A stretch of 47,531 nt of DNA, from the NCBI GenBank assembly GCA_035640715.1, contig DASQVO010000066.1, forward strand, positions 1 through 47,531. The letters are read 5' to 3'. Below are positions 4,393-20,950 of this stretch, piece by piece. The translations under genes were made by a program, and so were the position numbers. The first letter of the stretch is position 1; the number at the start of each line of letters is the position of its first letter. The notes beneath the pieces were generated by a model. It was given only the letters and a program-made list of their open reading frames with translations. It did not search any database and was not told where the DNA came from. Origin of the DNA: Streptosporangiaceae bacterium (lineage in GTDB: Bacteria > Actinomycetota > Actinomycetes > Streptosporangiales > Streptosporangiaceae).

Positions 4393-4688
4393 TCCTGCCA
4401 GGCGCAATCCCCGCATCCGGGGACGCAGTGCCCCGCCGGACGGCACCGCGCGGCGCGGCTGCCGCCGGGCTGCCCGGCATGTATAGTTATGCGCCGAACC
4501 GTGGCAGGAAATCCCTGAAGTGCCACCGGACACTCTGGACAGATCACCGTCAGCGAGTCGTGCTGGAAGGGAACTCCCACGTCCGGGGAGCTTGCCACGG
4601 GCTCGTCTTCTACCTGTAGCCTGCCTTCACATAAGGCGTGGCATACCCGAGAGTCGGCCAGCTTCCATATGGCGGAAGGAAACGTGCG

Positions 4689-5903
4689 GTGACCGGACCG
4701 GCGCCGAAAGGCAATTTCGAGCTTGACGCTGTCGTCATCGGCGGGTGCGGGCATGTCGGCCTGCCCCTTGCGATCGCACTTGCCGCCCGCGGTGCGCGGG
4801 TCGGCATCTATGACGTGAGCGAGACCGCGGTCGAGACGGTCAATGCCGGCCGGCTGCCGTTCGCCGAGCCCGGCGCCGCGGAGCCGCTGCGCGCTGCCCG
4901 CGCCGCGGGCCAGCTGGAAGCATCGGCCGATCCCGCCATCGTGGCCAGCGCCGAGCACGTGATCGTGGTGATCGGCACGCCGGTGGATGAGCACCTCAAC
5001 CCCGACCAGGTAGCCATACCCAACGCACTCGGCAGCTGTTCCAGATACCTGCACGACGGGCAGATCCTCATCCTGCGCAGCACCGTGTACCCCGGGGTGA
5101 CGGCGCTGGTGGAGAAGATGGTCGCCGGGCTGGGCGTCGACATCGACGTGGCGTTCTGCCCCGAGCGGATCGCCGAGGGCAAGGCCATGACGGAGCTGTT
5201 CGAGCTCCCGCAGATCGTCTCGGCCCGCACGGCCCGCGGCGCGGAGCGGGCGAGCCGGCTGTTCAGCCGGCTCACCGACAAGCTCGTGATGATGTCCCCG
5301 GAGGAAGCCGAGCTTGCCAAGCTCTTCACCAACGTATGGCGCTACATCAAGTTCGCGACCGCCAACCAGCTCTACATGATGGCCAACGACCGCGGCCTCG
5401 ACTTCGAACGCATCCGGCAGGGGCTGGCGCAGGATTACCCGAGGGCCGCCGACATGCCGGCCGCCGGGTTTGCAGCCGGGCCGTGCCTGTTTAAGGACAC
5501 GATGCAGCTCGCTGCCTTCAACAACAACAACTTCGCTCTCGGGCACACCGCGATGACGATCAACGAGGGCATGCCGCTCTACCTTGTCCACCGCCTCGAG
5601 CAGAACTTCGACCTTGCGTCCATGACGGTCGGGATCTGTGGCATGGCGTTCAAGGGCGGCTCGGACGACATCCGGTCGAGCCTGTCGTACAAGCTCAAGC
5701 GGATCCTGACCTTCAAGGCCGACACGGTGCTGTGCACCGACCCGTACGTGACCGTCGACCCGGACCTGCTCCCGCTGGAGAAGGTCATGGCCCGGTCGGA
5801 CCTGCTGGTGATCGCCGCGCCGCATCCGGAGTACCGGGAGCTGGCGACGGACAAGCCGGTGGCCGACATCTGGAACATCACCGGGAAGGGCGTGCGGGTA
5901 TGA
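4689..5903 (+). CDS. Nucleotide-sugar dehydrogenase (UDP-glucose/GDP-mannose dehydrogenase family)
   Basis: Rossmann motif VIGGCGHVGLPLA, catalytic Cys in AAGPCLFKD, C-terminal UDP-binding-like domain. GTG at 4689 sits 8 nt after GGAAGGA; the longest ORF begins at 4638. Confidence 0.85.
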   Translation: MTGPAPKGNFELDAVVIGGCGHVGLPLAIALAARGARVGIYDVSETAVETVNAGRLPFAEPGAAEPLRAARAAGQLEASADPAIVASAEHVIVVIGTPVDEHLNPDQVAIPNALGSCSRYLHDGQILILRSTVYPGVTALVEKMVAGLGVDIDVAFCPERIAEGKAMTELFELPQIVSARTARGAERASRLFSRLTDKLVMMSPEEAELAKLFTNVWRYIKFATANQLYMMANDRGLDFERIRQGLAQDYPRAADMPAAGFAAGPCLFKDTMQLAAFNNNNFALGHTAMTINEGMPLYLVHRLEQNFDLASMTVGICGMAFKGGSDDIRSSLSYKLKRILTFKADTVLCTDPYVTVDPDLLPLEKVMARSDLLVIAAPHPEYRELATDKPVADIWNITGKGVRV

Positions 5904-6664
5904 CCGGCGACGACCCGCGCGTGTCGGTCGTCATGCCCGCCTACAACGAGGGCGGGCAGATCGTTCCGATACTTGACCGGCTCTTCGAGTCGGTACGCCT
6001 GTCCTGCGAGGTCCTCGTCATCGTCGATACCGACACCGACACGACGATCCCCGTCATCGAACAGTACGCGAAGAAGGAACCGCGGCTCCGCTGCCTGATT
6101 AACACCTACGGCCGCGGGCCGGCCAACGCGATCAGGTTCGGCATCGACGCCGCCGCGGCGCCGGTCGCCGTCGTGACGATGGCGGACGGCTGCGATGACG
6201 CGCGGCAGATCGACGAGCTCGCGCGGCTCGTGGAACGCGGCGTCGCCGTCGCCGCGGCCTCCCGCTACATGGCCGGCGGCCAGCAGGTCGGCGGTCCCGT
6301 CCTGAAGGGCACGCTGTCCCGGATGGCCGGCCGCTCGCTGCGGGTACTGGCGCACGTCGGCACCAGGGACGCGACCAACTCGTTCAAGGCGTACTCAACG
6401 GAGTTCGTCCGGGAAGTCGGCATCGACTCCCGCGACGGCTTCGAGATAGGCATCGAGCTCACGGCCAAGGCCAAGCGCCTCGGCCGCCCTGTCGCCGAGA
6501 TTCCCACTATCTGGCTGGACCGGCAGGCAGGCGTCTCCAACTTCCGGGTTGCGAAGTGGATTCCCAGCTACCTGCGCTGGTACCGGTTCGCGTTCGGCTC
6601 CCGCCTGACCGCTGAGCAGATACGCGTTCGCGCGTCCCAGGAGCGTCATTCGTCAGCCGGCTAG
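5900..6664 (+). CDS. GT2 glycosyltransferase, polyprenyl/dolichyl-phosphate sugar synthase-like (DPM1/ArnC-like)
   Basis: VSVVMPAYNEG start of a GT-A fold; acidic motifs IVDTDTD and MADGCDD; FKAY...GFEIGIEL tail as in Ppm1/DPM1-type enzymes. The ATG overlaps the upstream stop (ATGA at 5900-5903). Confidence 0.8.
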   Translation: MTGDDPRVSVVMPAYNEGGQIVPILDRLFESVRLSCEVLVIVDTDTDTTIPVIEQYAKKEPRLRCLINTYGRGPANAIRFGIDAAAAPVAVVTMADGCDDARQIDELARLVERGVAVAAASRYMAGGQQVGGPVLKGTLSRMAGRSLRVLAHVGTRDATNSFKAYSTEFVREVGIDSRDGFEIGIELTAKAKRLGRPVAEIPTIWLDRQAGVSNFRVAKWIPSYLRWYRFAFGSRLTAEQIRVRASQERHSSAG

Positions 6665-6671
6665 CGAATAC

Positions 6672-6748
6672 GGGCTTTCTGGGCCCATGTGAGCGGCCAG
6701 TGCGGGCTGCGACGACAGCCTACCCGGGCCGCCTGAATGGCGCGAAAA
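6672..6748 (+). repeat. About 75-nt hairpin-forming repeat, copy 1 (partner at 18801-18875)
   Basis: CCCATGTGAGCGGCC[A/G]GTGCGGGC...CAGCC...GGGC[C/T]GCCTGAATG[G/A]CGCGAA is shared by both copies. The outer stem is GCGGCC/GGCCGC here. Confidence 0.55.
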
Positions 6749-6800: not shown

Positions 6801-7829
6801 ATGATGGAGAAAGTTCTCGTCAGTGGCTCGGCGGGCTTCATCGGCGGTTATGTCGTCGAGGAACTGCTCCGGCGAGGCTACGCGGTCGTGGGTGTGGACA
6901 ACTTCTCCAAGTACGGGAAGGTGAAGAAGTCCTACGACGATCATCCGCACTACCAGATCGTTGAAGGCGACGCGCGCGATGTCGGCCTGATGACGAGCCT
7001 GCTCGCTGACTGTGATCACTTCATCGCCGGCGCGGCCATGATCGGCGGCATCTCCTACTTCCATACCTACGCCTACGACCTGCTGGCGACCAATGAGCGG
7101 ATTATCGCCGCCTCCTGCGACGCGGCGATCAAGGCCCACCAGGAGGGCCGCCTGCGCAAGGTCACCTACCTGTCGTCGTCCATGGTCTTCGAGAGCGCGA
7201 ACGAGTGGCCGTCGTATGAGGGCCAAGAGCGGGAGGTCCCGCCGCCGCTGTCGTCCTACGGGTTCCAGAAGCTGGCTGTCGAGTACTTCGCGCACGCCGC
7301 GTGGGACCAGTACCAGCTGCCGTACACGATCGCGCGGCCGTTCAACTGCGTAGGGATCGGCGAGAGCCGGGCGCTGGGCGACGAGGAGATCCTGTCCGGC
7401 AACGTCCGGCTGGCCATGAGCCACGTCGTTCCCGACCTGGTGCAGAAGGTGCTCAAGGGCCAGGACCCGCTGCACATCCTCGGCTCGGGTGAGCAGGTCC
7501 GGCACTACACCTACGGCGGCGACCTCGCCACGGGCGTGGTGACCGCGATGGAGCACCCCGACGCCCGCAACGAGGACTTCAACCTGTCCACGGCGGAGAG
7601 CACCACCGTGCTCCAGCTGGCCGAGGTCATCTGGCGCAAGATCAAGGGCGACGGGGTGCCACTGCGGATCATCAACGACGAGCCGTTCACTTACGACGTG
7701 CAGCGGCGCATCCCAGCCGTCGACAAGGCCAAGCGGATACTCGGCTTCGAGGCGACGACGACGCTGGACCAGATGCTGGACGAGGTCATCCCGTGGATCC
7801 GCAACGCCGTCGAGGCCGGCACGATCTGA
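6801..7829 (+). CDS. NAD-dependent epimerase/dehydratase (extended SDR)
   Basis: GSAGFIGG glycine motif; catalytic S...YGFQK (YxxxK). 342 aa. Confidence 0.9.
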   Translation: MMEKVLVSGSAGFIGGYVVEELLRRGYAVVGVDNFSKYGKVKKSYDDHPHYQIVEGDARDVGLMTSLLADCDHFIAGAAMIGGISYFHTYAYDLLATNERIIAASCDAAIKAHQEGRLRKVTYLSSSMVFESANEWPSYEGQEREVPPPLSSYGFQKLAVEYFAHAAWDQYQLPYTIARPFNCVGIGESRALGDEEILSGNVRLAMSHVVPDLVQKVLKGQDPLHILGSGEQVRHYTYGGDLATGVVTAMEHPDARNEDFNLSTAESTTVLQLAEVIWRKIKGDGVPLRIINDEPFTYDVQRRIPAVDKAKRILGFEATTTLDQMLDEVIPWIRNAVEAGTI

Positions 7830-7851: not shown

Positions 7852-9597
7852 ATGTCGGCGTCGGACGAAGGGGCGGCAGGCCAGGGAGCCGGGCCAGCGG
7901 GTGGCATAGCGGTCGTCCCGGCGGCGCGACGCCGTGGCGGCGAGCCGCGCCGCCCGGCCGCGCTCGGCAATGCCGCCCGCTGGCTCTGGCCAGCTGCGTT
8001 CGCGCTGGCGGGGATCGTGCTGTTCCTTGTGTACCTGCGGCTCTCGAATACCTACCCGGAGAACTCCGACCAGGCGAACCTCGGGCTGCAGGCCTGGGAC
8101 ATGCTGCACGGCAACCTGCTGCTGCACGGCTGGGTCTTGTCGGACGTGTCGTTCTACACGACCGAGCTGCCGCAGTACATGCTGCTCGAGCTGATCCTCG
8201 GCCTGCACACCGGGACGTTCCACGTGGCCGCGGCGATGACTTACACGCTGGTGGTGCTGCTCGCCGCGCTGCTGGCCAAGGGCAAGGCAACCGGCCGCGA
8301 GGCCGTGGTCCGGACGATGGTGGCCGGCGGGATCATGCTCGCGCCGCAGCTTGGCTTCGGCGTCTTCGTGCTGCTGCTGACTGTGGGGCACATCGGGACG
8401 TCAGTGCCGCTGCTGCTGACCTGGCTCGTGCTGGACCGCTGGCGGTCGCGCTGGTATGTGGCGGCGGTGATCGGGATCCTGCTGGCGTGGGGAGCCGTGG
8501 CGGATTCCCTGGTGCTTGCGGTGGGCGCCGTGCCACTGGCGCTGGTCTGCGGGTTTCGCGTCATCCAGGGGCTCTTCAGCGCGGCCGGCACGGATGGCGG
8601 CCCGTCCGCCAGGCTCAGCCGGGTGCTCCGGTCACGCTGGTACGAGCTGTGCCTGGCCGGGGCTGCCGTGGCAGCGGCCGGGGCCTCCTGGGCGGTGACC
8701 AGGCTGATCCGCGCACTGGGCGGCTACGCCGTGCACCCGGTCACGTTCCAGATCGAACCGGTGCGCCAGTGGGTCGCCAACATCCCGGCCACGTGGCATG
8801 GAGTGCTCCTGCTCTTCGGCGCGGACTACGTCGGCGCCAAGCCCGGCTCCGGGCTTGACTTCGCCCTCCTCCATCTGGTCGGCGTGGCCCTGGTGGGCTG
8901 CGCGCTGCTGCTCGTGGTGCTGCGGTTCTTCACCCGGGTATCACTGACCGACCAGGTGCTGGCCGTCGCCATCGTCATCAACGTGGTTCTGTACCTGATC
9001 AGCAACATGCCCTCGCTGAACCCGCATGAGCTAGCCGTCGTCCTGCCGTGCGGGGCGGCCCTGGCCGGCCGGATGCTCGCCGGCCGGGCACGGGCCAGCG
9101 TGCACACTGGCCCGGTGCGCCGCGGCGTGCCCAGCGGGCCGGTGCGGGCCGCGCTGGGAGGGCTGGGAGGGCTGGTCCTGGCCGGTTACCTGCTGGGCCT
9201 GGCCCATGAGGCCACCCGGCCGCCTGTTCCGGCGGACAAAGCGGATCTCACCTCATGGCTGGCCGCCCATCACCTCACCAGCGGGCTGGGCGGTTACTGG
9301 GAGGGAAGCATCGTTACCGTCGAGAGCGGGGGCAGCGTCAAGGTCCGGGCGCTGATGCAGTTCACTCTCCAGGCCGATATGTGGGAGGCGAAGGGTTCGT
9401 GGTATGACCCCCGCTCGCAGCGGGCCAACTTCGTCGTCTTCGACAGCCTGCCAGGGTTCCGCCGGCACTGGGAGCCCTACTCGCTGGTCCGCAAGTATTT
9501 CGGCGTTCCCGCGCGCACATACCGGTTCGGCCCGTACACGGTGATGGTCTGGGACAAGAACCTGCTGGCGAGCATCCCGGCCGGCTGGCAGATTTAA
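7852..9597 (+). CDS. Polytopic membrane protein, family A paralog 1; putative GT-C-fold glycosyltransferase with a C-terminal soluble domain
   Basis: 581 aa with many hydrophobic spans. The loop after TM1 reads NSDQANLGLQAWDMLHGNLLLHGW. The C-terminal block reads GYWEGSIVTVESGG...WEAKGSWYDPRSQRANFVVFD...RTYRFGPYTVMVWDKNLL. Paralogous to 12884-14584 and 15759-17456. Confidence 0.7.
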   Translation: MSASDEGAAGQGAGPAGGIAVVPAARRRGGEPRRPAALGNAARWLWPAAFALAGIVLFLVYLRLSNTYPENSDQANLGLQAWDMLHGNLLLHGWVLSDVSFYTTELPQYMLLELILGLHTGTFHVAAAMTYTLVVLLAALLAKGKATGREAVVRTMVAGGIMLAPQLGFGVFVLLLTVGHIGTSVPLLLTWLVLDRWRSRWYVAAVIGILLAWGAVADSLVLAVGAVPLALVCGFRVIQGLFSAAGTDGGPSARLSRVLRSRWYELCLAGAAVAAAGASWAVTRLIRALGGYAVHPVTFQIEPVRQWVANIPATWHGVLLLFGADYVGAKPGSGLDFALLHLVGVALVGCALLLVVLRFFTRVSLTDQVLAVAIVINVVLYLISNMPSLNPHELAVVLPCGAALAGRMLAGRARASVHTGPVRRGVPSGPVRAALGGLGGLVLAGYLLGLAHEATRPPVPADKADLTSWLAAHHLTSGLGGYWEGSIVTVESGGSVKVRALMQFTLQADMWEAKGSWYDPRSQRANFVVFDSLPGFRRHWEPYSLVRKYFGVPARTYRFGPYTVMVWDKNLLASIPAGWQI

Positions 9598-9712: not shown

Positions 9713-11263
9713 GTGACCATCCGAGGGCACCGGAACACCGCGTCAGCGGCAACCGCCGTGCGCCGTCCATGGTGGATCTGGGCGGGGCCCTTCGCGATAT
9801 TGCTCGCCGTGCTACTGGTCCGCAACCGGTTCCTCTTCACCACCCGCATCTACGAGCACGGCGATGCCGGCGCGAACTCGATCCTGATCCAGCAGGCCAT
9901 GCACGTCACCCTGCTGGTCGGCAACTACTCGCGCGAGGGTTTCAACCATCCGGGGCCGGCGTACATGTATGTGCAGGCGTTCGGCCAGTGGGTGTTCCAG
10001 TACGCACTGCATGTGGTGCCGACCGCCTGGAACGCTCACATGCTCGCCGTCTTCGTGCTCAACAGCGCCCTGCTGGCGATGGCTGTCGCCATCGTCTACG
10101 GCTGGACGCGCTCGCTGCGCGGTGCTGCCGCCTGCTTCGCGGTCCTCCTGGTCTTCGCCGCCGTGCACCCGCCAGCGGTCAGCTCGGACTGGAACCCATA
10201 CGTGTACGTCCCGACGTACTGCGTTTTCGTGATCGCGGCGGCGTCGGTGGCGGCCGGGCATTCACGCGATGCGTGGATTCTCGCGCTGACCGGGTGGTTC
10301 CTCATCCATGGCCAGGCATCCTTCCTGTTCTTCGTCCCGGTCATTGTCCTTGCGGCGCTGGCTGTCCTGGTGTGGGCGCACCGGCGGACACCGGTCGCGT
10401 CGCTACGGCGTTTCTTCCGCGAGCAGCGGAAGACCTGGATCGCCGCGGGTGGCATCAGCGCCCTGTTCGCCCTGCCGATCGTCGTCAACCTGTCGCTCAA
10501 CTGGCCGGGTGACTTCGCCAAGTACGTTGCCTACGGCCGCTCGAAGCACGCCGGCGGCCACACGCCCGCGCAGATCGCCGATTACGCGCTGTGGTTCTGG
10601 TGGCCGCACGGCAACGCGTGGCTGGCGCCCGTCCTGCTGTACGGGCTCGCGATCAGCGTGACTTTCTGGCTCGCCCGCGGTCCGCTGCGCCGGTTCTTCC
10701 TTACGCTGCTGGGCATCAACCTGGTGTCATCCCTGGCGCTCGGCATCTACGCCGCGGCCGGCATCGACTTCCTGTCCGAGTACTACATCGGCTACTTCTA
10801 CTGGTCGGCGCCGCTGGTCACGATGCTCGTCATCGCCGTCGGCGTAGGACAGGCGCTCACCTTCCGCTGGGCCACCGCCGTGGCCGCGGCCGGCGCGGCG
10901 GCCGCTCTCGTCGTGCTCGCGGCAGTTCCCGGGATACGCACGAGTACGGCGGATTCCGATCCGGGCCTGCCACGGGCCGTTGCCGCGCTTGCCGCCCGGG
11001 CGCCGGGCCGGCTGATCGTCCTGACCATCGACCACGGGACCTGGATTGACACCACCGGTTTCCTGGTCCAGGCGGAGCGGACGCACGTGCGGGCGTGCCT
11101 GGACCAGCCGTGGTGGAGTTTCATGATGACCAGGCAGTTCATCTGCACATCCCGGGAAGCCGCGGCCGGGGTGCATTACTGGTTCGACTCGCCGAAGCCT
11201 GCGCCGAATTCGCCGGTCATCCTGCGTTTCGGCAACACCGATGTTGCTGTGGGGCCACATTGA
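9713..11263 (+). CDS. Polytopic membrane protein, family B paralog 1; putative GT-C-like
   Basis: GTG start after GGAGGAGGAG. 516 aa. The loop after TM1 reads YEHGDAGANSILIQQA...NYSREGFNHPGPAYMYVQAFGQW. Tandem paralog of the next gene. Confidence 0.7.
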   Translation: MTIRGHRNTASAATAVRRPWWIWAGPFAILLAVLLVRNRFLFTTRIYEHGDAGANSILIQQAMHVTLLVGNYSREGFNHPGPAYMYVQAFGQWVFQYALHVVPTAWNAHMLAVFVLNSALLAMAVAIVYGWTRSLRGAAACFAVLLVFAAVHPPAVSSDWNPYVYVPTYCVFVIAAASVAAGHSRDAWILALTGWFLIHGQASFLFFVPVIVLAALAVLVWAHRRTPVASLRRFFREQRKTWIAAGGISALFALPIVVNLSLNWPGDFAKYVAYGRSKHAGGHTPAQIADYALWFWWPHGNAWLAPVLLYGLAISVTFWLARGPLRRFFLTLLGINLVSSLALGIYAAAGIDFLSEYYIGYFYWSAPLVTMLVIAVGVGQALTFRWATAVAAAGAAAALVVLAAVPGIRTSTADSDPGLPRAVAALAARAPGRLIVLTIDHGTWIDTTGFLVQAERTHVRACLDQPWWSFMMTRQFICTSREAAAGVHYWFDSPKPAPNSPVILRFGNTDVAVGPH

Positions 11264-11279: not shown

Positions 11280-12869
11280 GTGACGATTGGGGACTGGAAG
11301 ACCGCTGAGCCCCGGGCAGCCGGGTCTGCCATCCCGGTCGTGATCACAGACGGGCCGGGCGGGGCGCGCCGTCCATGGTGGATTTGGGCCGCGCCTTTCG
11401 CGGTCCTGTTCACCACCCTCATCGTCCGCAACCGGTTTCTCTTCACCACTCGGCTCTATGAGCGCGCCGATTCCGCCGCGAACTCGATCCTGATCCAGCA
11501 GGCCATGCACTTCACCCTGCTCGTGGGCAATTACTCCCGTGAAAACTTCAACCATCCCGGGCCGGCGTACATGTACGTGCAGGCGTTCGGGCAGTGGCTG
11601 TTCTACGACGGGCTGCACGTGGTGCCGACCGCCTGGAACGCCCACGTGCTCGCCGTATTTGCCCTCGACAGCGCCTTCATGGCCCTGGCCGTGCTCGTCG
11701 TCTACGGCTGGACCGGCTCGCTGCGCGGGGCCGCGGCCTGCCTGACGGTCATCCTCATCTTCGCTGCCTCGCACCCGCAGGCGGTCAACAACGACTGGAT
11801 GCCGTACATGTACATCCCGACGTACTGCGTCTTCGTGATCGCGGCGGCGTCGGTGGCGGCCGGGCATTCACGCGATGCGTGGATTCTCGCGCTGACCGGG
11901 TGGTTTCTCATCCACGGCCAGGCGTGCTTCCTGTTCTTCGTCCCCTTCATCATTTTTCCGGTGCTGGTGGCTCTGGTGTGGGCGCACCGGCAGACGCCGG
12001 CCGCGTCGCTGCGGCGCTTTGTCCGCGGCCAGCGGAAGGTCTGGATTCCGGTCGTTGCCATCAGCATCCTGTTCGCCTTGCCGATCGTCGTCAACCTGGC
12101 GCTCAACTGGCCGGGTGACTTCGGGAAGTACTTTGCCTATGGCAGGTCCGCGCAGGCCGGCCACCACAGCGCCGCGCAGATTGCGCATTTCGTGCTGTGG
12201 TTCTGGTGGCCGCACAGCAACGCGTGGCTGGCGCCGGTCCTGCTGTACGGGCTTGCGATCGGTGTGACCTTCGGCCTCACGCGGGGGCCGCTGCGCCGGT
12301 TCTTCCTCGCGCTGCTGGGCATCAATCTGGTGTCATCCCTGGCACTTTGCATCTACGCGGCGGTCGGCATCGATTTCCTTTCCGAGTACTACATCGGCTA
12401 CTTCTACTGGTCGGTGCCGATGATCACCTTGCTCGTGATCGTCGTCGGCGTTGGCCAGGCGATGGGTCCCCGCATTGGCACGGCTGCGGCCGCGGCCGGG
12501 GCGGTGACCGCGCTCGTCGTCCTCGCCGCGCTGCCCGGCCTGCGTACGAGCACGCAGCGCACCGATCCGAGTCTGCCCGGGGCCGTCGCCAGGCTCGCCG
12601 CCATGGCCCGTGGCCGGACGATCGTCCTGACCATCGGCCAGACTCAGTGGGGCGACACCACCGGCTTCCTCGTGCAGGCCGAGCGGACCCAGGTCCGGGC
12701 CTGCGTGGATGAGCCGTGGTGGACATTCATGATGACGAAGCAGTTCATCTGCACGCCGCAGGAGGCCGAGACCGGGGTACATTACTGGTTCGACTCGCTG
12801 AAGCCTCCGCCGCACGCGCCGGTCATCTTCCGTTTCGGCGGTTCCGATGTCGCAGCGAAGGCCGGTTGA
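11280..12869 (+). CDS. Polytopic membrane protein, family B paralog 2; tandem duplicate of 9713-11263
   Basis: GTG at 11280 sits 7 nt after GGGGAG. Both copies start VTI...RRPWWIWA.PFA. Similarity is very high along the whole length. Confidence 0.7.
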   Translation: MTIGDWKTAEPRAAGSAIPVVITDGPGGARRPWWIWAAPFAVLFTTLIVRNRFLFTTRLYERADSAANSILIQQAMHFTLLVGNYSRENFNHPGPAYMYVQAFGQWLFYDGLHVVPTAWNAHVLAVFALDSAFMALAVLVVYGWTGSLRGAAACLTVILIFAASHPQAVNNDWMPYMYIPTYCVFVIAAASVAAGHSRDAWILALTGWFLIHGQACFLFFVPFIIFPVLVALVWAHRQTPAASLRRFVRGQRKVWIPVVAISILFALPIVVNLALNWPGDFGKYFAYGRSAQAGHHSAAQIAHFVLWFWWPHSNAWLAPVLLYGLAIGVTFGLTRGPLRRFFLALLGINLVSSLALCIYAAVGIDFLSEYYIGYFYWSVPMITLLVIVVGVGQAMGPRIGTAAAAAGAVTALVVLAALPGLRTSTQRTDPSLPGAVARLAAMARGRTIVLTIGQTQWGDTTGFLVQAERTQVRACVDEPWWTFMMTKQFICTPQEAETGVHYWFDSLKPPPHAPVIFRFGGSDVAAKAG

Positions 12870-12883: not shown

Positions 12884-14584
12884 ATGACGTCGCTCGGCCG
12901 CGGGTCATCTCGGCGAGGGGCAGGTGCCGGGGCGCCGGCCCCAGAAATGCCGGCGATCTCTTCGGCCAAGGAGGCCGGGCGCGGCCTACGGACACCAGCT
13001 GCCCGGAAGATAGCGTGGGCAGCCGGGTATGCGGTGGCGGCTGTGGTCTTGTTCTTCTGCTACCTCCGGCAGTCGCGGACGGTGACGGTTGGTGCCGACG
13101 GCGGGTCAATCGCGCTTCAGGCATGGGACATGCTCCACGGCAACGCGCTGCTGCAAGGCTGGGGCATGTCGGACGTGTCGTTCTATTCGACGGAACTCGT
13201 GCAATACGTGCTGCTGGAGGCACTCCACGGACTGGGCCCCGATGTGATCCACATTGGCGGGGCGATGACGTACACGCTGCTGCTGCTGCTTGCGGGATTG
13301 GTGGCCAAGGGCCGCGCGGGGGGCCGCGAAGGCCTCGTCCGGGTCCTGGTCGCGGGCGGCATCATGCTGGCCCCGGCGCTGGGCAATGCGACCTCAACGC
13401 TGCTGCTGACCCCGGATCATCTCGGCAGCGCGGTGCCCGTGCTGCTGGCGTGGCTGCTCGTGGAGCGCCTGCCGCAACGCTGGTACGTGCCTGTCGCCGT
13501 ATGTGTCGTGCTGGTGTGGGGGCAGGTCGCCGATCTCCTCGTGCTCCTCACCGGGGTCGCGCCGCTGGTTATTGTCTGCGGCATCCGCGTGGGCCAGAAA
13601 GTGTGGCGTCGGGAGCCGCTCAAGTCTCAGTGGTATGAGCTAGCGCTCATCGCTGCCGCGCTGGCCTCCGTGGGGCTTATGCGCGCTGCCGAGGCCCTCA
13701 TCCGCATCAGCGGCGGTTTCGTGCTGCAGCCAGTTGCCATGAGCTTCGCCGGATGGTCCGCGATGCCGCAGCATCTCCTGGTCACGGGCGAAGGCCTGCT
13801 GACGCTCTTCGGCGCGTCCTTCTTCGGCCCGGAGCCCAGCAACTACATGATTTTCGCTGTGCTGCACGTCGCGGGCGTTGCCGCGGTGGCCTGGGCTTTC
13901 TGCGTCGCCATACGGCGGTTCGCGCGCCGGGAGGAGCTAATCGTCCCGGCGCTCGTCCTCGCGATCGTGCTCAACGTGGCGGCGTACGTGCCCGGTACGT
14001 ACGTGGCGAACCTCCTCAGCACGCGTGAGATCTCCGAGGTGTTGCCGTTCGGCGCGGTGCTGGCCGGGCGGCTGCTGGCCGGCCCCATCGTGCGGGCTGG
14101 CCGGGCGGTCCGGCTCGTACTGGGGTCACTGGGGATCACCTGCCTGGTCTGCTATGCCGCTGCGGCGGGCTACGGCGCCGCCCAGGCGGCGGTGCCAGCC
14201 CAGAACCAGGATCTCGTGGCCTTCCTGATGGCACACGGCCTCCGCAGCGGGCTCGCGGGCTACTGGCAGGCCAACAGCGTGACGCTGGACAGCGGGGGCC
14301 AGATCGTGGTCAGGCCCGTGAAGCTGAACGCGGCGGGACTGGCGGTGGCGAACCTCTGGGAGGCGAAGGCGTCGTGGTACGACCCGCGGGCCAACCAGGC
14401 CAACTTCGTCGTCACCGTCAGCAGGCCGCCGTCCCAGGAATGGCAAATGCAGCCTTTCCAAGCACGGGACACGTTCGGCCACCCGGTGCGGACGTATCGT
14501 TTCGGGCGCTACACCATCCTGGTATGGCACACTAACCTGCTGGCCCATCTCGGCCAGGGCGTAGACAAGAGCGTCGGGCCGTAG
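12884..14584 (+). CDS. Polytopic membrane protein, family A paralog 2; putative GT-C-like
   Basis: ATG at 12884 after GAGAGGGGG. Motifs GADGGSIALQAWDMLHGNALLQGW and C-terminal GYWQANSVTLDSGG...WEAKASWYDPRANQANFVV...RTYRFGRYTILVWHTNLL. Confidence 0.7.
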   Translation: MTSLGRGSSRRGAGAGAPAPEMPAISSAKEAGRGLRTPAARKIAWAAGYAVAAVVLFFCYLRQSRTVTVGADGGSIALQAWDMLHGNALLQGWGMSDVSFYSTELVQYVLLEALHGLGPDVIHIGGAMTYTLLLLLAGLVAKGRAGGREGLVRVLVAGGIMLAPALGNATSTLLLTPDHLGSAVPVLLAWLLVERLPQRWYVPVAVCVVLVWGQVADLLVLLTGVAPLVIVCGIRVGQKVWRREPLKSQWYELALIAAALASVGLMRAAEALIRISGGFVLQPVAMSFAGWSAMPQHLLVTGEGLLTLFGASFFGPEPSNYMIFAVLHVAGVAAVAWAFCVAIRRFARREELIVPALVLAIVLNVAAYVPGTYVANLLSTREISEVLPFGAVLAGRLLAGPIVRAGRAVRLVLGSLGITCLVCYAAAAGYGAAQAAVPAQNQDLVAFLMAHGLRSGLAGYWQANSVTLDSGGQIVVRPVKLNAAGLAVANLWEAKASWYDPRANQANFVVTVSRPPSQEWQMQPFQARDTFGHPVRTYRFGRYTILVWHTNLLAHLGQGVDKSVGP

Positions 14585-14776: not shown

Positions 14777-15745
14777 ATGCGACGCATCCTCGCGCTCATC
14801 GCTTTCCCGCTGCTGGGCGCCTCTGCGCTGGCTGGCTGCGGGTCGTCCTCGCCGTCTACGCCGTCGTCGGCGGCGAACGCCGCCGTCACCGCAAAAGGGA
14901 CGTTCGGCAAGGCGCCGTCTGTCACGATCCCGAAGGAGAAGCCAGGCAGCGCGCTCACCGTCAAGACCCTGATCCAGGGGAACGGGGCCACGATCAAGAA
15001 GTCAGATCTGGTCCTCAGCAACTTCACGCTGTACCTGTGGAGCGGCACGAAGAACAAGCTGGTCGACTCGACCTACCAGTTCACCCCTCAGGTACTTCCC
15101 GCCTCTCTGCTTCCCGGAATCGAAACCGCCCTGACCGGCGAGAAGCTTGGCAGCCGGGTACTCGCGGTGCTCCCGCCAAAGGAAGGCTACGGCAGCAACG
15201 GCAACCCCCAGCTCGGCGTGTCTGGCTCCGACACGCTCGTCTTCGTCATGGACTTGATCCAGAGGTACTCCTCCGGCGCGGTCTCAGCATCCGGTTCGCA
15301 CGTGTCAAGCGGCGGAGGCGCCCTCCCAACGGTCAGCGCGGCGCAGGGCAGCGCGCCGGCCGTGACGATCCCCAAGGGCGTGACGCCCCCGAAGACGCTA
15401 GTGGCGAAGACCCTGATCAGGGGCTCCGGGCCGGCTGTCACCAAGGGGCAGGACCTCGTCGTCCAGTACACCGGCGTCAACTGGCGTACCGGCAAGGTAT
15501 TCGATTCCTCGTGGTCGCGTGCAACGCCCTTTTCCTTCAAGATCGGGGCAACGCCCAGCCAGGTCATCGCCGGCTGGGACAAGGGCCTCATCGGCCAGAC
15601 CGTGGGCAGCCGCGTGCTGCTGGTCATCCCGCCGTCCGACGGCTACGGCAGCGCCGGGCAGGCACAGGCCGGGATCAAGGGCACCGACACTCTCGTCTTC
15701 GTGGTCGACATCATCAGCGCCGTAAATCCCGGCTCAGCTGCCTGA
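14777..15745 (+). CDS. Lipoprotein with two FKBP-type peptidyl-prolyl cis-trans isomerase domains
   Basis: Signal peptide plus lipobox MRRILALIAFPLLGASALAGC. There are two FKBP modules; the second is classic: VVQYTGVNWRTGKVFDSSW...FKIG...VIAGWDKGL.GQ.VGSRVLLVIPP..GYG. ATG at 14777 follows GAGG. Confidence 0.85.
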   Translation: MRRILALIAFPLLGASALAGCGSSSPSTPSSAANAAVTAKGTFGKAPSVTIPKEKPGSALTVKTLIQGNGATIKKSDLVLSNFTLYLWSGTKNKLVDSTYQFTPQVLPASLLPGIETALTGEKLGSRVLAVLPPKEGYGSNGNPQLGVSGSDTLVFVMDLIQRYSSGAVSASGSHVSSGGGALPTVSAAQGSAPAVTIPKGVTPPKTLVAKTLIRGSGPAVTKGQDLVVQYTGVNWRTGKVFDSSWSRATPFSFKIGATPSQVIAGWDKGLIGQTVGSRVLLVIPPSDGYGSAGQAQAGIKGTDTLVFVVDIISAVNPGSAA

Positions 15746-15758: not shown

Positions 15759-17456
15759 ATGGCTGGGCAAGCACCAGAGACGGCAGGAGCCGCCCAGGCG
15801 GTCGGTGCCCCGGACATGCCAGGGGCACCGCCGCCCGGTCCCGCGCCGGACCTCGGCACCCGGGCGGGACACGGGAAGGGGGGCGCGGAGGGCGCGGCAG
15901 CCCCGGCCGGCCCGGCGCGCCGCGGACGATGGGCGTGGGCGGCCGCGTTCACGGCGGCCGGGATCGCCTTGTTCGCTGCCTACATCCGGCTGTCAGCCAC
16001 CTATCCGGTGAACTCGGACGGGGCGAACATTGTGCTGATGGCGTGGGACATGCTGCACGGCAACCTGCTGCTGCACGCCTGGTCCATGTCGGATGTGGCG
16101 TTCTACACCACCGAACTGCCGCAGTACATGCTGCTGGATCTCATCCGCGGGCTGAGCCCCGATGTGACCCATATCGCGGCTGCCATGACCTACACGCTCG
16201 CGCTGCTGCTCGCGGCGCTGCTGGCGAAGGGCCGGGCGCCGGGCGGGGAAGGCGTCGCCCGGGTGCTCGTGTCGGCGGGGGTCATGCTGGCGCCCCAGCT
16301 CGGCGTGGGCATCTTCGTCCTGCTGCTGTCGGTGGGCCACATCGGCACGGCCGTGCCGGTCCTGCTGACCTGGCTGGTGCTGGACCTGGCGCGGCCGCGC
16401 TGGTTCGTGCCGGTCATCGCCGGTGTCATGCTGGCCTGGGCGATGACCGCCGACTCCCTCGTGCTTGTGGTGGGCGTCGCGCCGCTGGTGCTGGTGTGCG
16501 CGCTCCGCGTCGTGCAGCGGCTTGCGGCGCGCCAGGCGCTCCGGACCGCGTGGTATGAGCTGTCGCTGGCCGTCGCGGCGCTCGCCGCGATCGCGGCCTC
16601 GTCGGCCGCCGGGAGGGTCATCCACGGGATCGGCGGCTACACCCTCCACCCGGTGCCGTACAGCTTGGCCGACGTGACCGCGTGGCCGGCGCACCTGCGT
16701 GTGACGGCCCAAGGGGTACTCGCGATCTTCGGCGCCAGCTTCACCGGATTGCGGCCGGGTGCCGCCCTGGTGTTCGCGATACTGCATCTCGCCGGGCTGG
16801 CGATGGTGGTGTGGGCGCTGTGGCTCGTGGCGCGGAACTTCCTGCGCCGGGCCGGGCTCATCGATCAGGTCCTGGCCGTCGCGATCGTCCTCAACCTGGC
16901 CGTATACGTGCCCAGCGCGCTGGCGAGCGGCGTGCTGAACGCGCGGGAGTTCGCCGTCGTGCTGCCGTTCGGCGCCGCCCTCGCCGGGCGGGTGCTCGGC
17001 CCTCGGGTGAGGGGAACGAGGCTCGCGCCGGCGCTGCTGGCCGTACTCGCCGGATACGGGCTTTCGCTTGTCTACGGGGCGGCGCAACCCCCGGCCCCGC
17101 CGGCGAATGCGCGCCTGGCTACGTGGCTGGCCGGCCATCACCTGTACAACGGGCTGAGCGGCTACTGGCAGGCCAGCAGCGTCACGCTGGACAGCGCGGG
17201 CAAGGTCACGATCAGGGCGCTGGTGACGCACGGCGCCGGGCTCGTGCCGTACCAGTGGGAATCAAAGAGCACCTGGTATGACCCGCGCTCGCGGCAGGCC
17301 AACTTCGTCGTCCTCGACAGCCAGCCGGGATTCTTCAACTACTGGGAGCCTGCGGGCCCGGTCCGCGCGGTGTTCGGCCAGCCGGCGCGGACCTACCGCA
17401 CCGGCCCGTACACGATCCTGGTCTGGAACCAGAACCTGCTCAGCCGCCTCCGCTGA
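15759..17456 (+). CDS. Polytopic membrane protein, family A paralog 3; putative GT-C-like
   Basis: 565 aa. NSDGANIVLMAWDMLHGNLLLHAW and C-terminal GYWQASSVTLDSAG...WESKSTWYDPRSRQANFVVLD...RTYRTGPYTILVWNQNLL. Confidence 0.7.
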   Translation: MAGQAPETAGAAQAVGAPDMPGAPPPGPAPDLGTRAGHGKGGAEGAAAPAGPARRGRWAWAAAFTAAGIALFAAYIRLSATYPVNSDGANIVLMAWDMLHGNLLLHAWSMSDVAFYTTELPQYMLLDLIRGLSPDVTHIAAAMTYTLALLLAALLAKGRAPGGEGVARVLVSAGVMLAPQLGVGIFVLLLSVGHIGTAVPVLLTWLVLDLARPRWFVPVIAGVMLAWAMTADSLVLVVGVAPLVLVCALRVVQRLAARQALRTAWYELSLAVAALAAIAASSAAGRVIHGIGGYTLHPVPYSLADVTAWPAHLRVTAQGVLAIFGASFTGLRPGAALVFAILHLAGLAMVVWALWLVARNFLRRAGLIDQVLAVAIVLNLAVYVPSALASGVLNAREFAVVLPFGAALAGRVLGPRVRGTRLAPALLAVLAGYGLSLVYGAAQPPAPPANARLATWLAGHHLYNGLSGYWQASSVTLDSAGKVTIRALVTHGAGLVPYQWESKSTWYDPRSRQANFVVLDSQPGFFNYWEPAGPVRAVFGQPARTYRTGPYTILVWNQNLLSRLR

Positions 17457-17467: not shown

Positions 17468-18754
17468 CTACCAGATCCGGGTCCGGTACACGGCGACGGC
17501 GATGAGGATCGGAGCCGCGCATGCCGCGAACGCCTTGAGGCGACGCTGTGGCGTGGCGAACAGGATCAGCACGGCCAGCAAGTACACCTCGACGAACGAC
17601 CGCAGGTCCGCATAGCCGTTCCAGTTGGTGGGCGACAGCGAGAAGATCTCCACTACGTACAGGACGAAGGCGAGGCGCTCGTATACCGGCACCGCGGTGG
17701 CACGCAACGACAGCAGCGCGGCGATGGCGAAAACGGCGAGGACCAGGAACTCGACATCCCAGATGATGACCGCGCCAGGCGCGCCGCCCACCACGGCGGT
17801 GGGGTGGGTGAAGTTGTGGACCACCGCCTTGATGCCGGCCGACAGAGGGAAGCTGGCGTTCTTCCCGCCGTCGCTCAGGATGGGGAAGACCCCCGTCGCG
17901 GCCTTCAGCACCACTTCCCAGCCGATGAAGACGACACCGGGCAGGACCCAGGCCAGGTCATCGAGTGACGGCCGGGCGCGGCGGCGGACGATCTCGATGA
18001 GCCGCACGATGCCGAGCGCCACGGGCGCGACCAGGACCGTCTCCCGGGTGAGGCACCCATAGGCGAACGCGACCGCGGCGAGCACCGGGTGCCGGCGGCG
18101 GTAGGCGAGGATCCCGGCGAGCAGGCATACGGCGCCCAGCGGCTCGGTCAGGTCGCGGGCCAGGCTCGTCATGAGGCCGAAATAGCCGGCCAGCAGCAGG
18201 CCCCATATCGCGTGGCGGCCGGACTCGCGGGCGAGTAGGCCGCCGAGCAGGCCCAGGACGCCCATGGCCACGATATTGATCGCGACCAGCGCATAAGGCA
18301 CCGCCGAATGCTGGCCGCCTGAGATAAGCCAGGTGAGAGCGGAGTAACCGATCCGTATGAACCGGTACGAGTAGTCCATGGTGATGCCGAATGCGGTCCG
18401 GTGGAGGTTGGCGGGGTCCAGCGCCATCCGGTAGTAGAACTGCCCGTCGTAGCCGGTGTAGCGGAAGACATGCACGCCAGGGGGGAGCCGAGCCGGGTTG
18501 CCGTATTTGTCGCCGACCAGCATGAGGTCGGTGACGTTGCGATGGGCCAGCAGCACCATGCGCACGATGACCACGCCCAGTGCGACCACGAAAGCGATCA
18601 GCCCGGGGACGGCCGGCCGGTTCGTCACCGTCCGCAGCGCTGAGCGCTGCCCCGGCACGGTCGTGTCGCCGGCTGTCGTTGATGCCAGGTGCACCTGCGG
18701 CCTCCACCCTGCGTGCCAGCCCGGGCCGGGCATGTTGCCTGCCGGGAACGTCAT
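17468..18754 (-). CDS. Polytopic integral membrane protein with a YDGQFYY loop motif; possible GT-C/PIG-V-like transferase or polymerase
   Basis: 428 aa, hydrophobic throughout. FRYTGYDGQFYYRMALDP follows the first TM. Convergent with 15759-17456, with an 11-nt gap. Confidence 0.6.
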   Translation of the reverse strand: MTFPAGNMPGPGWHAGWRPQVHLASTTAGDTTVPGQRSALRTVTNRPAVPGLIAFVVALGVVIVRMVLLAHRNVTDLMLVGDKYGNPARLPPGVHVFRYTGYDGQFYYRMALDPANLHRTAFGITMDYSYRFIRIGYSALTWLISGGQHSAVPYALVAINIVAMGVLGLLGGLLARESGRHAIWGLLLAGYFGLMTSLARDLTEPLGAVCLLAGILAYRRRHPVLAAVAFAYGCLTRETVLVAPVALGIVRLIEIVRRRARPSLDDLAWVLPGVVFIGWEVVLKAATGVFPILSDGGKNASFPLSAGIKAVVHNFTHPTAVVGGAPGAVIIWDVEFLVLAVFAIAALLSLRATAVPVYERLAFVLYVVEIFSLSPTNWNGYADLRSFVEVYLLAVLILFATPQRRLKAFAACAAPILIAVAVYRTRIW

Positions 18755-18800
18755 TCACAACCGGCCAACACGACCGGGGGTCCGCCCGGGCCCGCACAGC

Positions 18801-18950: not shown

Positions 18951-19386
18951 TTAGCCGTTCTTGCCTGGGCGATCGGTGAGGTCGTCGATGATCAGGCCGA
19001 GGGCGATGCCCATCATCCACGAGTCCTTGGCGAGCGCGATGCCCTGCTCCGTCGGGAACGGGGTACCTTCCCGGCGCATGCCGGGCGTTTTGGCGTACAG
19101 GCCGAGCAGGCCGCCGGAGAACGCTGCCAGGCCCGCGCCGGCCAGGGCGGACGGCACGAACGGGATTAGCAGCGCCGAGCCCAGCGTGATCTCGGCGGCC
19201 GCGAGGAGCTTCGCGAAGTCCTTCGGCTTCAGCTTTTTCAGGAACGGGTACGTGCCTGCCGCGAATCCGTGCAGCTGTGCGGCGGTCTCCTCGTCCGCGG
19301 ACAGCTTGCCCACACCGGAGTTGAGGAAGAACGCGCCCGTCGCCATCCGCGCCGGCAGATGGCTTGCCTTCACCAAAAGTCTCATG
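18951..19386 (-). CDS. Small integral membrane protein (DoxX-like topology; family not assigned)
   Basis: ATG at 19386 after AGGAGCG. 144 aa with hydrophobic segments GAFFLNSGVGKL, LLAAAEITLGSALLIPFV and GLAAFSGGLLGLY. Confidence 0.6.
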
Positions 19387-19480
19387 TTCTCGCTCCTATC
19401 GCTACGGAAAGTCAGGTTCCATTGTTTCCCACCGCCCCGGCACCCCGTCCCGGGGGACCATGGTGCTGCCCTGTCTCCCC

Positions 19481-19600
19481 GCTCGCTCATGCTCTGTCTC
19501 CCCGCTCGCCTCCGGGGCGCCTTGACGCGCCGCCTTCCCTCGTCGCTCGTACCTCGCTCCTCAGTCCAGGCGGCACGGCGCCCCTGCGGCTCGCTCATGC
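19481..19600 (-). repeat. Stop/start-junction mini-ORF hairpin element, copy A
   Basis: About 94% identical to 38174-38290. On the minus strand it begins GCATGAGCGAGCCGCAGGGGCGC, with its ATG overlapping the TGA of 19595-20839, and it is bounded by the direct repeat GCATGAGCGAGC. Confidence 0.7.
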
Positions 19601-20839
19601 CTGCAGCAGGGCGGCGGCGTGCCGCCCGGCCGCCGCGGCCGCGAGGAAGTAGACGCGGTCCTCGTCCAGGCCCCTGCCCATCGTGGACAGCGGTGCCGGG
19701 CACCGGCGCAGCGCCTCATCAAGGCCGTCGAGCTCGACCCGGACCAGCGAATGCCGCCTCCCGAGCGGCTCCGCCTCCGCCGCGACCCGCGCGCCGAACT
19801 CGCCGGGCAGGGCAGGCACCACGACGTCCGCCCGCGCGAGCGCCACCCGGCCATAGGAGGTGAGGCTGTGATGCGACACGCCGCGATGGCGCTCGCGCGG
19901 GTCCGCCTCGCTGACCCGCAGCGCCGCCACCGGGCGGCCGGCCAGGGCGGCGACCGCGTTGACCGCCTCGCCGGCCGCCACGCCGGAGAAGCCCCACGTC
20001 GTGCCCGTGCCCAGGTTGCCGGGCCCCTGTGCCACGACGGCCACGTCCGCCCCGAGCACATGCCGGGCCGCGAGCAGCCCGGTGTGCAGGGTCACCGCCT
20101 CGAGATCGCCGCCGAACGCCTGCCCGGCGGTGACCGTCCCGGCCAGCCACCCGGCCTCCCGCAGCGCCGCGCAGGTCCGGGAGAACCAGGCCGGCAATGC
20201 CCCGCCGTCCGTCATCACGTACACCACGCGCGGGCGGCGTCCGGGGCCGCCGGGGTCTGGGCCACGGAGGTCCAGGGGCATCCCCTGGGAAGGCGCCGTC
20301 CCAGGCGGCAGGGTATCTTCGCGGGCGTGCGGGCACTCCCCGCGCCTTCGTTCAGTATCGGCATAGAGTCCCGCCAGCACGGCCGGGAGAGCGGAGTGCA
20401 GGTCGGCCACCACGACCGGCATTCCCCCGATGCTGTCCGCACTGCGCAGCGTGTCGTGGTGCGGCGACCCCTGCTCATCGGCGCCCAGTACCACGGCCTG
20501 CAGCGGCGTGTAGCGGGCCTTGACCAGGTGCCCGGGCCCGGACCGGTCCGGTGGCAGCCTGTCGGGAACCGCGACGACCAGCGCGTACCCGCCGGTGCCG
20601 AGTCCCAGGTCAAGCGCGGTCGTGTTGAGCAGCACCCGGTCGCCTGGCTCCGGCCGTCCGGTCAGCTCCGGGTAGGCGAGCGCGCGCACAGGCAGGGCGG
20701 ATGCTTCCTGGCCGCCGGCCGCGCCGTGGCGCGCCGCCGCAGGCCCCCCGGGGGGCCCGGATATCGTCACGTCCAGTTCCACTGCGCCGGGCCACTCCCG
20801 CCGGATGCGGGATACCGTGCCGTTCCGCCACGTGATCAC
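19595..20839 (-). CDS. Conserved hypothetical protein, DUF3866-like
   Basis: 414 aa. The blocks LGTGGYALVV, GHLVKARYTPLQ, VYVMTDGGALP and PGNLGTGTTWGFSG recall the DUF3866 family (assigned from memory, not searched). Coding-type third-position G+C bias. Confidence 0.6.
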   Translation of the reverse strand: MITWRNGTVSRIRREWPGAVELDVTISGPPGGPAAARHGAAGGQEASALPVRALAYPELTGRPEPGDRVLLNTTALDLGLGTGGYALVVAVPDRLPPDRSGPGHLVKARYTPLQAVVLGADEQGSPHHDTLRSADSIGGMPVVVADLHSALPAVLAGLYADTERRRGECPHAREDTLPPGTAPSQGMPLDLRGPDPGGPGRRPRVVYVMTDGGALPAWFSRTCAALREAGWLAGTVTAGQAFGGDLEAVTLHTGLLAARHVLGADVAVVAQGPGNLGTGTTWGFSGVAAGEAVNAVAALAGRPVAALRVSEADPRERHRGVSHHSLTSYGRVALARADVVVPALPGEFGARVAAEAEPLGRRHSLVRVELDGLDEALRRCPAPLSTMGRGLDEDRVYFLAAAAAGRHAAALLQA

Positions 20840-20950
20840 TCCGGCAGGTTAACCTCATCACTCCGGCGGGGTAGCCGGGCGCGCGGATTATGCACCCGCA
20901 CCCGGCCGCGGTGGGCGAGAATATATCCGGACCGGGGAGGAGGGGTGCCG

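Follow-up and report, generated by a model that had tools for sequence, protein, structure and literature searches.

In this study, we have analyzed a stretch of 47,531 nucleotides labelled as DNA of a Streptosporangiaceae bacterium (contig DASQVO010000066.1, positions 1 to 47,531; hereafter called the window) and propose that the genes between pafA and pafB include a cassette that probably links an oxidized sugar to a lipid carrier in the membrane and then transfers it to the cell surface by means of several glycosyltransferases of the GT-C superfamily. As far as the comparison of related loci goes, the functional unit appears to be composed of a donor module and variable numbers of genes for large membrane proteins: namely, a nucleoside diphosphate (NDP)-sugar 6-dehydrogenase (DH), a family 2 glycosyltransferase (GT2) and an extended short-chain dehydrogenase/reductase (SDR), together with proteins of three families called A, B and C here. 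From their fold and topology, A and B are predicted to belong to the GT-C superfamily, while the same assignment for C is a conjecture. We consider it fairly likely that a lipid-phosphate-sugar donor feeds several GT-C enzymes, which would assemble or modify a glycan of the envelope on the outer side of the cytoplasmic membrane; the sugar carried by this donor is probably a uronic acid. While the logic of such a system is familiar and we infer its functional steps, our search of the literature on GT-C families in actinomycetes and on pafA neighborhoods found no description of the cassette. The idea of an undescribed multi-GT-C system, which was put forward in an initial annotation of this DNA, thus stands within the sources searched.

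About 16.5 kb of genes separate the end of pafA (position 4392) from the start of pafB (position 20951), and re-annotation with Pfam and NCBIfam scans gave the same gene inventory and coordinates for this interval as the initial annotation. On the + strand, the DH gene (4689–5903) is followed by those of GT2 (5900–6664; 254 aa) and SDR (6801–7829), and then by the membrane protein genes A1 (7852–9597; 581 aa), B1 (9713–11263; 516 aa), B2 (11280–12869; 529 aa) and A2 (12884–14584; 566 aa), by a gene for a lipoprotein with two FKBP_C domains (14777–15745; PF00254 in two stretches with 2.2e-32, lipobox LAGC) and by A3 (15759–17456; 565 aa). DH through A3 share one direction, with intergenic gaps of 11–136 bases. 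On the − strand are the genes of the polytopic membrane protein C (17468–18754; 428 aa), a small membrane protein of 144 aa (18951–19385) and a DUF3866 protein (19595–20839; PF12982 with 2.8e-124).

Proteins A and B make up large families for which the databases searched hold no annotation of function. Neither Pfam nor NCBIfam matched the A and B proteins of the window; no GT-C family was hit when 57 of their homologues were scanned singly, ten distant or longer members of family A gave no Pfam match, and the PDB contained no match for A or B by sequence or profile. Indeed, the 360 homologues among the matches listed carried “hypothetical protein” as the only source name, and their precomputed Pfam domains were empty. 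In a collection of 5.8 billion proteins, more than 5,180 proteins belonged to family A and 1,035 to family B; also, a search with the family A profile through 1.84 billion representative proteins gave 3,562 clusters (50% identity) with an E-value of 1e-3 or lower, 1,052 of which were retained at 1e-30 or lower. A and B hence appear to lie outside every GT-C sequence family described in Pfam, NCBIfam and the PDB.

Within the window, the three A proteins are 43–55% identical to each other (A1-A2, 43%; A2-A3, 51%; A1-A3, 55%), and B1 and B2, with 76% identity, represent a tandem duplication. In terms of B1, we noticed that the recorded gene call (P0121; 487 aa) begins 29 codons within the open reading frame (ORF) and would drop the first transmembrane helix (TM1), unlike homologues of 532 aa, which span the full B1 ORF. 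No similarity was detected by BLAST between A, B and C. When profiles were compared, A and B were matched marginally over TM1 and the following loop (hhalign, E 1.3e-3, probability 18%), where YPENSDQAN of A was paired with YEHGDAGAN of B. The initial annotation had described the membrane proteins as two related families; a relationship of A and B is favored by the predicted fold and topology that they share, but in sequence, that marginal match is the only link.

The assignment of A and B to the GT-C superfamily is based on AlphaFold2 models of one member per family, namely A1 and B1, for which 29 and 28 homologues, respectively, were aligned. The A1 model had a predicted local distance difference test score (pLDDT) of 69.5 and a predicted TM-score (pTM) of 0.73, and the B1 model a pLDDT of 79.1 and a pTM of 0.83. 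When the A1 model was compared with the PDB by Foldseek, the top nine matches were all GT-C enzymes with a probability of 1.00 (E 1.7e-4 to 1.2e-2; TMq 0.35–0.49), including DPY19, AglB, AftA, PglB, EmbA/B and ArnT, the last of which had the best TMq (0.49). Also for B1, the top 12 matches were all GT-C with a probability of 1.00 (E 1.5e-4 to 2.4e-2; TMq 0.28–0.50); STT3, DPY19, AftA, PglB, ALG3, Pmt4 and ALG12 (best TMq, 0.50) were among them, and further matches were found in AftD (probability 0.98), EmbB (0.97) and PimE (0.91). GT-C enzymes were the only proteins matched by the two models at a probability of 1.0, which supports the GT-C character proposed in the initial annotation for the large membrane proteins; transporter folds, which that annotation had named as the outcome speaking against its proposal, stayed below a probability of 0.3 with a TM-score of approximately 0.1 in both searches.

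Predicted helices and the positive-inside rule give A and B the same topology, in which 11 TM helices start from an N-terminus inside the cell. In both families, the first outside loop is long and contains short helices, TM6 and TM7 are separated by a cytoplasmic helix rich in Lys and Arg, and a C-terminal domain of approximately 100–125 residues lies outside the membrane. In the first outside loop, Asp73 and Glu105 of family A are invariant and Glu70, Asp83 and Asp98 are conserved in at least 90% of the members, while Glu48 and Asp51 are invariant in family B. The catalytic site of GT-C enzymes lies in the extracytoplasmic region after TM1 (PMC11127046), and the acidic residues in loop 1 are thus placed as expected for GT-C enzymes; they would be the catalytic residues of A and B. 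In the C-terminal domain of family B, furthermore, Cys462 and Cys478 are invariant, a pattern that fits a possible extracellular disulfide bond.

Protein C is the one large membrane protein to which a family could be assigned, whereas the initial annotation had found none assignable among the membrane proteins of the block; for A and B, with Pfam, NCBIfam and the PDB all empty, that statement remains correct. C scored 162.7 bits (cut-off, 150; E 7.6e-48; profile positions 7–231 of 232) with NF046093 of NCBIfam, [quoted passage not shown], a family for which the literature search returned no paper. Family C has more than 1,800 relatives with NF046093 as the sole family annotation, and two of the 30 family C members weakly matched DUF2079. 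Apart from NF046093 and the weak DUF2079 matches, no GT-C family was obtained when C was compared with Pfam, NCBIfam and the PDB by using sequences, alignment members and profiles. After TM1, the GYDGQFYYR motif is nearly invariant and Asp127 is invariant in family C.

In the donor module, DH, which contains three UDPG_MGDP_dh domains of Pfam, scored 258.5 bits with TIGR03026 of NCBIfam (cut-off, 189.8). We take it to be 404 aa in length from the GTG codon at 4689, while the longest ORF begins at 4638; GGAAGGA is found upstream of the former, and homologues are 400–404 aa in length. Its nearest relatives in the PDB were UDP-N-acetylmannosaminuronate (UDP-ManNAcA) dehydrogenase (4r16; 5.5e-43), UDP-glucose (UDP-Glc) dehydrogenase (3vtf) and Cap5O. 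Since the closest relatives are thus 6-dehydrogenases of UDP-N-acetylmannosamine and UDP-Glc, the product of DH should be an NDP-uronic acid.

The ATG start codon of GT2 overlaps the stop codon of DH (ATGA). GT2 (PF00535 with 8.9e-19) had the dolichol-phosphate-mannose (Dol-P-Man) synthase of Pyrococcus furiosus as its best relative in the PDB (5mlz; 9.3e-13), and the alignment spanned the whole catalytic domain. At the level of homology, this supports the initial annotation of GT2 as an enzyme resembling polyprenyl-phosphate-sugar synthases. The NCBIfam matches of GT2 were weak (Dol-P-hexose transferase, AglJ and ArnC), with every equivalog score far under its cut-off, and GT2 has no TM helix and hence no C-terminal membrane anchor. 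Given that a GT2 resembling Dol-P-Man synthase is conserved next to the A and B genes, A and B would use a donor linked to lipid phosphate.

Over its full length, SDR (PF01370 with 4.6e-39 and PF16363 with 6.9e-28) could be aligned with both UDP-Glc 4-epimerase and UDP-glucuronate decarboxylase. In UDP-glucuronate decarboxylases, the Glu residue of the S-T-S-E motif is required, and 4,6-dehydratases require Asp-Glu at this position. When SDR was aligned to UXS1 and to 8vr2, S-S-S-M was found in place of S-T-S-E, while YxxxK is present. Because the Glu residue of the decarboxylases and the acidic residues of the dehydratases are missing, SDR is more likely an NDP-sugar epimerase; a UDP-xylose synthase or ArnA-type decarboxylase and also a 4,6-dehydratase were considered and rejected for the lack of the required acidic residues in this motif. 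Taken together with the relatives of DH and GT2, the donor would be a polyprenyl-phosphate uronic acid.

The gene order in related organisms was examined by scanning for family A in one genome per GTDB species, which gave 524 stretches; the best 74 of them were used for the comparisons of loci. Nearly all of these 74 loci came from uncultured metagenome-assembled genomes (MAGs) of Danish soils, bogs, palsa and SPRUCE samples and were labelled as Streptosporangiaceae, Actinomycetes or Actinomycetota. Approximately 45 of the 74 loci combine DH-GT2-SDR with genes of families A, B and C, and the gene order takes several forms among them. There were three to seven GT-C-like genes per locus; a single B gene was the rule in most related loci, where every B scored best against B2. 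DH, GT2 and SDR were mostly 78–92% identical between loci, while the identity of A proteins was 31–70%, and such conserved donor enzymes with divergent A proteins would suit one donor serving diversifying transferases. A3 represents the subtype of A that is usually paired with C, and C/A3-type pairs indeed recur, standing alone in the loci L012, L013, L043 and L017.

Two of the loci deserve a separate mention. L017 belongs to Streptomyces humicola RB6PN25 (NZ_JANFNG010000001.1), and none of the other best loci for family A comes from an organism in culture. At approximately 6.9–12.8 kb, this locus has a lone C/A3-type pair (the pair itself at approximately 8.7–11.5 kb) between two SDR epimerase genes, with genes for a glycoside hydrolase of family 3 (GH3) and a YkuD L,D-transpeptidase nearby; this strain is a possible entry point for experiments. 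L029 (JBLMWU010000142.1), a contig of 2.8 kb in a “Gemmatimonadota” MAG, carries a C/A3-type pair that is approximately 50% identical to the actinomycete proteins. Because the contig is so short, mis-binning is likelier than a true occurrence outside Actinomycetota.

In terms of pafA, the loci can be categorized into three arrangements. The arrangement of the window, ald-pafA-[DH-GT2-SDR-A-B...]-FKBP-[A-C-sm]-DUF3866-pafB-pafC-tatC, where ald and sm denote the genes of an aldehyde dehydrogenase and the small membrane protein, was found in 15 loci. In 23 loci, the cassette lies upstream of pafA, as (ald)-[C-DH-GT2-SDR-B-(A)-C-A]-pafA-FKBP-DUF3866-pafB-pafC-tatC, and eight more loci showed the left part only of this arrangement, beginning at ald. 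One locus, L056, has pafA inside the cassette, in the order of DH-GT2-SDR-B-B-pafA-C-A-FKBP-DUF3866-pafB-pafC-A. The position of the cassette relative to pafA is thus a matter of local rearrangement, since upstream, downstream and pafA-embedded versions all exist. The ald gene (1400–2863, + strand, left of pafA in the window) is the conserved left edge in both main arrangements, with 77–87% identity between loci, and its neighbor is pafA in the window and cassette genes in other loci. The Pup ligase gene pafA itself (3034–4392, + strand; PF03136 Pup_ligase with 2.6e-169), which is the left boundary of the block and is outside the cassette, is 90–98% identical to those of the related loci.

The initial annotation had regarded the 16.5 kb between pafA and pafB as one block that splits a conserved synteny, but this does not agree with the arrangements described above. 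Among the loci with the cassette upstream of pafA, the 16 that are long enough to show it (e.g., L026, L028, L034 and L062) have pafA, FKBP, DUF3866 and pafB contiguous. Because they lie between pafA and pafB even where the cassette is upstream, FKBP and DUF3866 are considered to be old residents of this place and not cassette genes. The separation of pafA from pafBC in the window is accordingly one of several local rearrangements, specific to a lineage, and the cassette has been present in the neighborhood from ald to pafB since before these lineages diverged.

We also find no sign of the functional tie to pupylation that had been suggested from the neighboring genes. Of the loci, 23 have the cassette upstream of pafA and 15 have it downstream, L056 has it on both sides, and PafBC, which had been called pupylation regulators, is an activator of the DNA-damage response (PMC5656591, PMC6789036). 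The association of the cassette with the paf genes is positional only.

From these results, the following sequence of events can be proposed. In the cytoplasm, DH would oxidize an NDP-hexose to an NDP-uronic acid, which SDR may then epimerize, and the soluble GT2 would move the sugar to polyprenyl phosphate, as expected from its homology. The lipid-linked monosaccharide would then have to cross to the outer face of the membrane, for which the cassette has no flippase gene, and A and B, and probably C, would pass the sugar to acceptors with the predicted acidic catalytic residues of loop 1. Paralogues in a locus may serve different linkages or different acceptors, and a likely acceptor would be a glycopolymer of the cell envelope, built or decorated outside the membrane.

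In accordance with the initial annotation, which had noted the lack of Wzx, Wzy, ligase, primer and flippase, the Pfam/NCBIfam scans gave no match to Wzx, Wzy, ligase, priming phosphoglycosyl transferase, GtrA, SMR or MATE among the ORFs of the block. Aminotransferase, formyltransferase, deformylase and SMR genes were not detected in the block by the same scans, either. When 14 related cassettes were examined base by base, no flippase, primer enzyme, Wzx or Wzy was found, and no unassigned gap in them was as large as a gene beyond those explained by partial matches to A and C. The small membrane protein of 144 aa was considered as a flippase of the GtrA type and rejected; it has similarity to DoxX/MauE below the cut-off, adjoins the DUF3866 gene and is confined to loci with the arrangement of the window.

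The proposed system can be compared with several known ones. In the Gtr-type three-component periplasmic glycosylation, a polyprenyl-phosphate-sugar synthase, a flippase and a GT-C enzyme work together (Kelly et al. 2024, PMC11127046). The cassette would share with it a cytoplasmic synthase of polyprenyl-monophosphate sugar and GT-C enzymes acting outside, with the genes clustered, although the GT-C assignment is by predicted fold only here. The cassette differs from the Gtr type, however, in having no GtrA, SMR or MATE flippase gene, in its GT2 without the one or two TM helices that anchor GtrB-type enzymes, in having three to seven GT-C-like genes per locus where the Gtr type has one, and in its GT-C families without sequence match to the known ones.

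The sharing of one donor by several transferases has a precedent in Rhizobium. There, the nucleotide sugar of the Rgt pathway is supplied by a UDP-sugar dehydrogenase and a 4-epimerase, and RgtA-C are ArnT-like transferases of galacturonic acid (GalA). RgtE is the synthase of bactoprenyl-phosphate-GalA, which serves several GalA transferases, RgtD and RgtF among them (PMC7663294). The cassette would resemble this system in that a lipid-linked uronic acid donor made by GT2, which is presumed for the cassette, is shared by paralogous membrane transferases. In Rhizobium, nonetheless, the acceptors are the lipopolysaccharide core and lipid A of a Gram-negative organism, while the host is an actinomycete here, and the two are likened by logic and not by sequence.

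In mycobacteria and corynebacteria, GT-C pathways operate with Ppm1 and MptA/B/C or PimE, with decaprenyl-phosphate-arabinose (DPA) and Emb/Aft, and with PpgS together with Rv3632 and Rv3779 (PMC3485146). These also concern envelope glycans of actinobacteria made by several outside GT-C enzymes from a polyprenyl-phosphate-monosaccharide (decaprenyl-phosphate-arabinose or polyprenyl-phosphate-mannose); Ppm1/D2 and PpgS are GT2 synthases, and AftA and EmbA/B were among the structural matches of the cassette proteins. Having no TM helix, GT2 of the cassette is closer in this respect to the catalytic part of Ppm1 from mycobacteria (PMC3485146) than to GtrB. The cassette families have, however, no sequence similarity to the mycobacterial ones, and no gene for a membrane partner such as Ppm1/D1 or Rv3632 is located beside GT2. 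Furthermore, the donor pathway of the cassette includes a sugar 6-dehydrogenase, and its hosts are non-mycolate soil actinomycetes labelled as Streptosporangiaceae.

The Arn pathway (Ugd, ArnA, ArnB, ArnC, ArnD, ArnT and ArnE/F) is similar to the cassette in having a dehydrogenase, an SDR, a GT2 for a lipid-phosphate sugar and a GT-C enzyme, and ArnT gave the best TM-score for family A. The cassette is, however, without aminotransferase, formyltransferase, deformylase and ArnE/F, and has several GT-C-like proteins instead of one. We considered the cassette as the Arn pathway for 4-amino-4-deoxy-L-arabinose (L-Ara4N) itself and rejected it, given that SDR lacks the Glu residue of the decarboxylases and that genes of ArnB, ArnD and ArnE/F were not found.

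Several points weigh against the envelope glycan pathway that we propose. The TM-scores supporting the GT-C fold are modest (0.36–0.50, with a root-mean-square deviation of 9–14 Å), and pLDDT of the A1 model is only 69.5. C shows no profile-profile similarity to A or B, the sugar is assigned from one motif and family-level homology, and GT2 without an anchor might be an ordinary Leloir transferase. Also, the cassette versions examined contain no flippase, acceptor-synthesis or priming gene, and the source organism is uncultured.

With these points in mind, we compared our proposal with other explanations. The lipid-linked sugar might be destined for Ser/Thr residues of secreted proteins or lipoproteins, as in the protein O-glycosylation by Ppm1/Pmt in actinomycetes. 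Indeed, the protein-modifying enzymes DPY19, STT3/PglB/AglB and Pmt4 are among the structural matches, and the gene of a secreted FKBP lipoprotein sits within the co-directional gene run; GT-C enzymes for polysaccharides and lipids (ArnT, AftA, Emb and ALG12), however, are equal or better in the TM-score, and the FKBP gene is an ancestral neighbor of pafA and not a cassette gene. Three to seven paralogues per locus are better suited to a polymer with multiple linkages, and “glycopolymer formation” is what the NCBIfam name of C says. Modification of proteins is hence an unlikely role of the cassette. Alternatively, A, B and C might act as polymerases, ligases and the like on undecaprenyl-diphosphate oligosaccharides, for which DH-GT2-SDR would build the repeat unit with GT2 as a Leloir enzyme. 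No primer, Wzx or extra cytoplasmic glycosyltransferase was present, nonetheless, in the cassette versions examined, and over the full catalytic domain, the best solved relative of GT2 is Dol-P-Man synthase; these features make the assembly of a diphosphate-linked repeat unit improbable in our view, even though GT2 has no membrane anchor, PF00535 spans many Leloir enzymes, the cassettes examined revealed no flippase for a donor of the monophosphate type, and three enzymes acting on diphosphate-linked oligosaccharides (STT3, PglB and AglB) appear in the list of structural matches.

It might also be considered that the genes are clustered without functional meaning, in which case the membrane proteins would be unrelated to DH-GT2-SDR, would not be glycosyltransferases, and the structural matches would reflect a generic resemblance of helical bundles. 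Consistent with this are the modest TM-scores, the medium confidence of the A1 model and the lack of a sequence-level link to any GT-C family. In two independent models, however, only GT-C enzymes reached a probability of 1.0, with other membrane folds at a TM-score of approximately 0.1, and invariant acidic residues are found at the catalytic location of GT-C enzymes. The linkage of the membrane protein genes with DH-GT2-SDR, furthermore, survives several rearranged gene orders, and a meaningless clustering is regarded as very unlikely.

With a predicted GT-C fold and a connection to a donor module, A and B acquire a testable function, and they would extend the classifications of glycosyltransferases. 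A, B and C are three large families, two of which (A and B) had no domain or family annotation among the proteins examined. They are carried by uncultured actinomycetes that abound in peat, bogs and Danish soils, and for such a lineage, an envelope glycan assembled on the outer side of the membrane would be an ecologically interesting trait; the link to pupylation and PafBC that made the locus look special, on the other hand, does not hold up. A bolder version of the proposal, which we regard as tentative and on balance doubtful, is that A, B and C constitute a GT-C-only line outside the cytoplasmic membrane, making an anionic wall glycopolymer with uronic acid from one polyprenyl-phosphate uronate in non-mycolate actinomycetes. 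If so, it would be a counterpart of the mycobacterial arabinan and mannan synthesis outside Mycobacteriales, in actinomycetes of acidic peat and soil, would need neither a flippase gene of its own nor a primer linked to diphosphate, and its enzymes would represent new families of GT-C.

As for the rest of the window, of which the GC content is high (65–74%), no promoter-like site was found by the promoter scan, and the number of terminator-like sites (10 against 5.6 expected) is uninformative. Rfam and tRNA scans of the window gave no matches. The right boundary of the block is formed by pafB (20951–21931, + strand; WYL and WCX domains) and pafC (21928–22920, + strand; HTH_PafC, WYL and WCX domains), after which tatA (from 23998), tatC (24357–25280) and a helY-type helicase gene (25379–28363) follow. 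In the region of 28–47 kb, no genes for acceptor synthesis, export or priming that might serve the cassette were found; its content is only a TnpB gene, an ABC-2 transporter, GNAT, PmbA/TldD and a LysR gene. The ABC-2 transporter pair (32666–34639, + strand), which consists of a DrrA-like ATPase and an ABC2_membrane permease, is 12 kb away from the cassette; we see nothing that links the two, and the pair was not kept beside the cassette in the related loci viewed. The TnpB or IS605 OrfB-type gene (28987–30327, − strand), with HTH_OrfB_IS605, OrfB_IS605 and Cas12f1-like TNB domains, is directly downstream of helY and represents a mobile element near the rearranged region. The gap between pafC and tatA is occupied by an ORF of 289 aa (22905–23774, − strand) with a sub-threshold match to HTH_17 (24.5 bits against a cut-off of 27). 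The spacing between pafC and tatC is approximately 1.0–1.1 kb in three loci with the arrangement of the window, compared with approximately 0.55–0.63 kb in five loci where the cassette precedes pafA.

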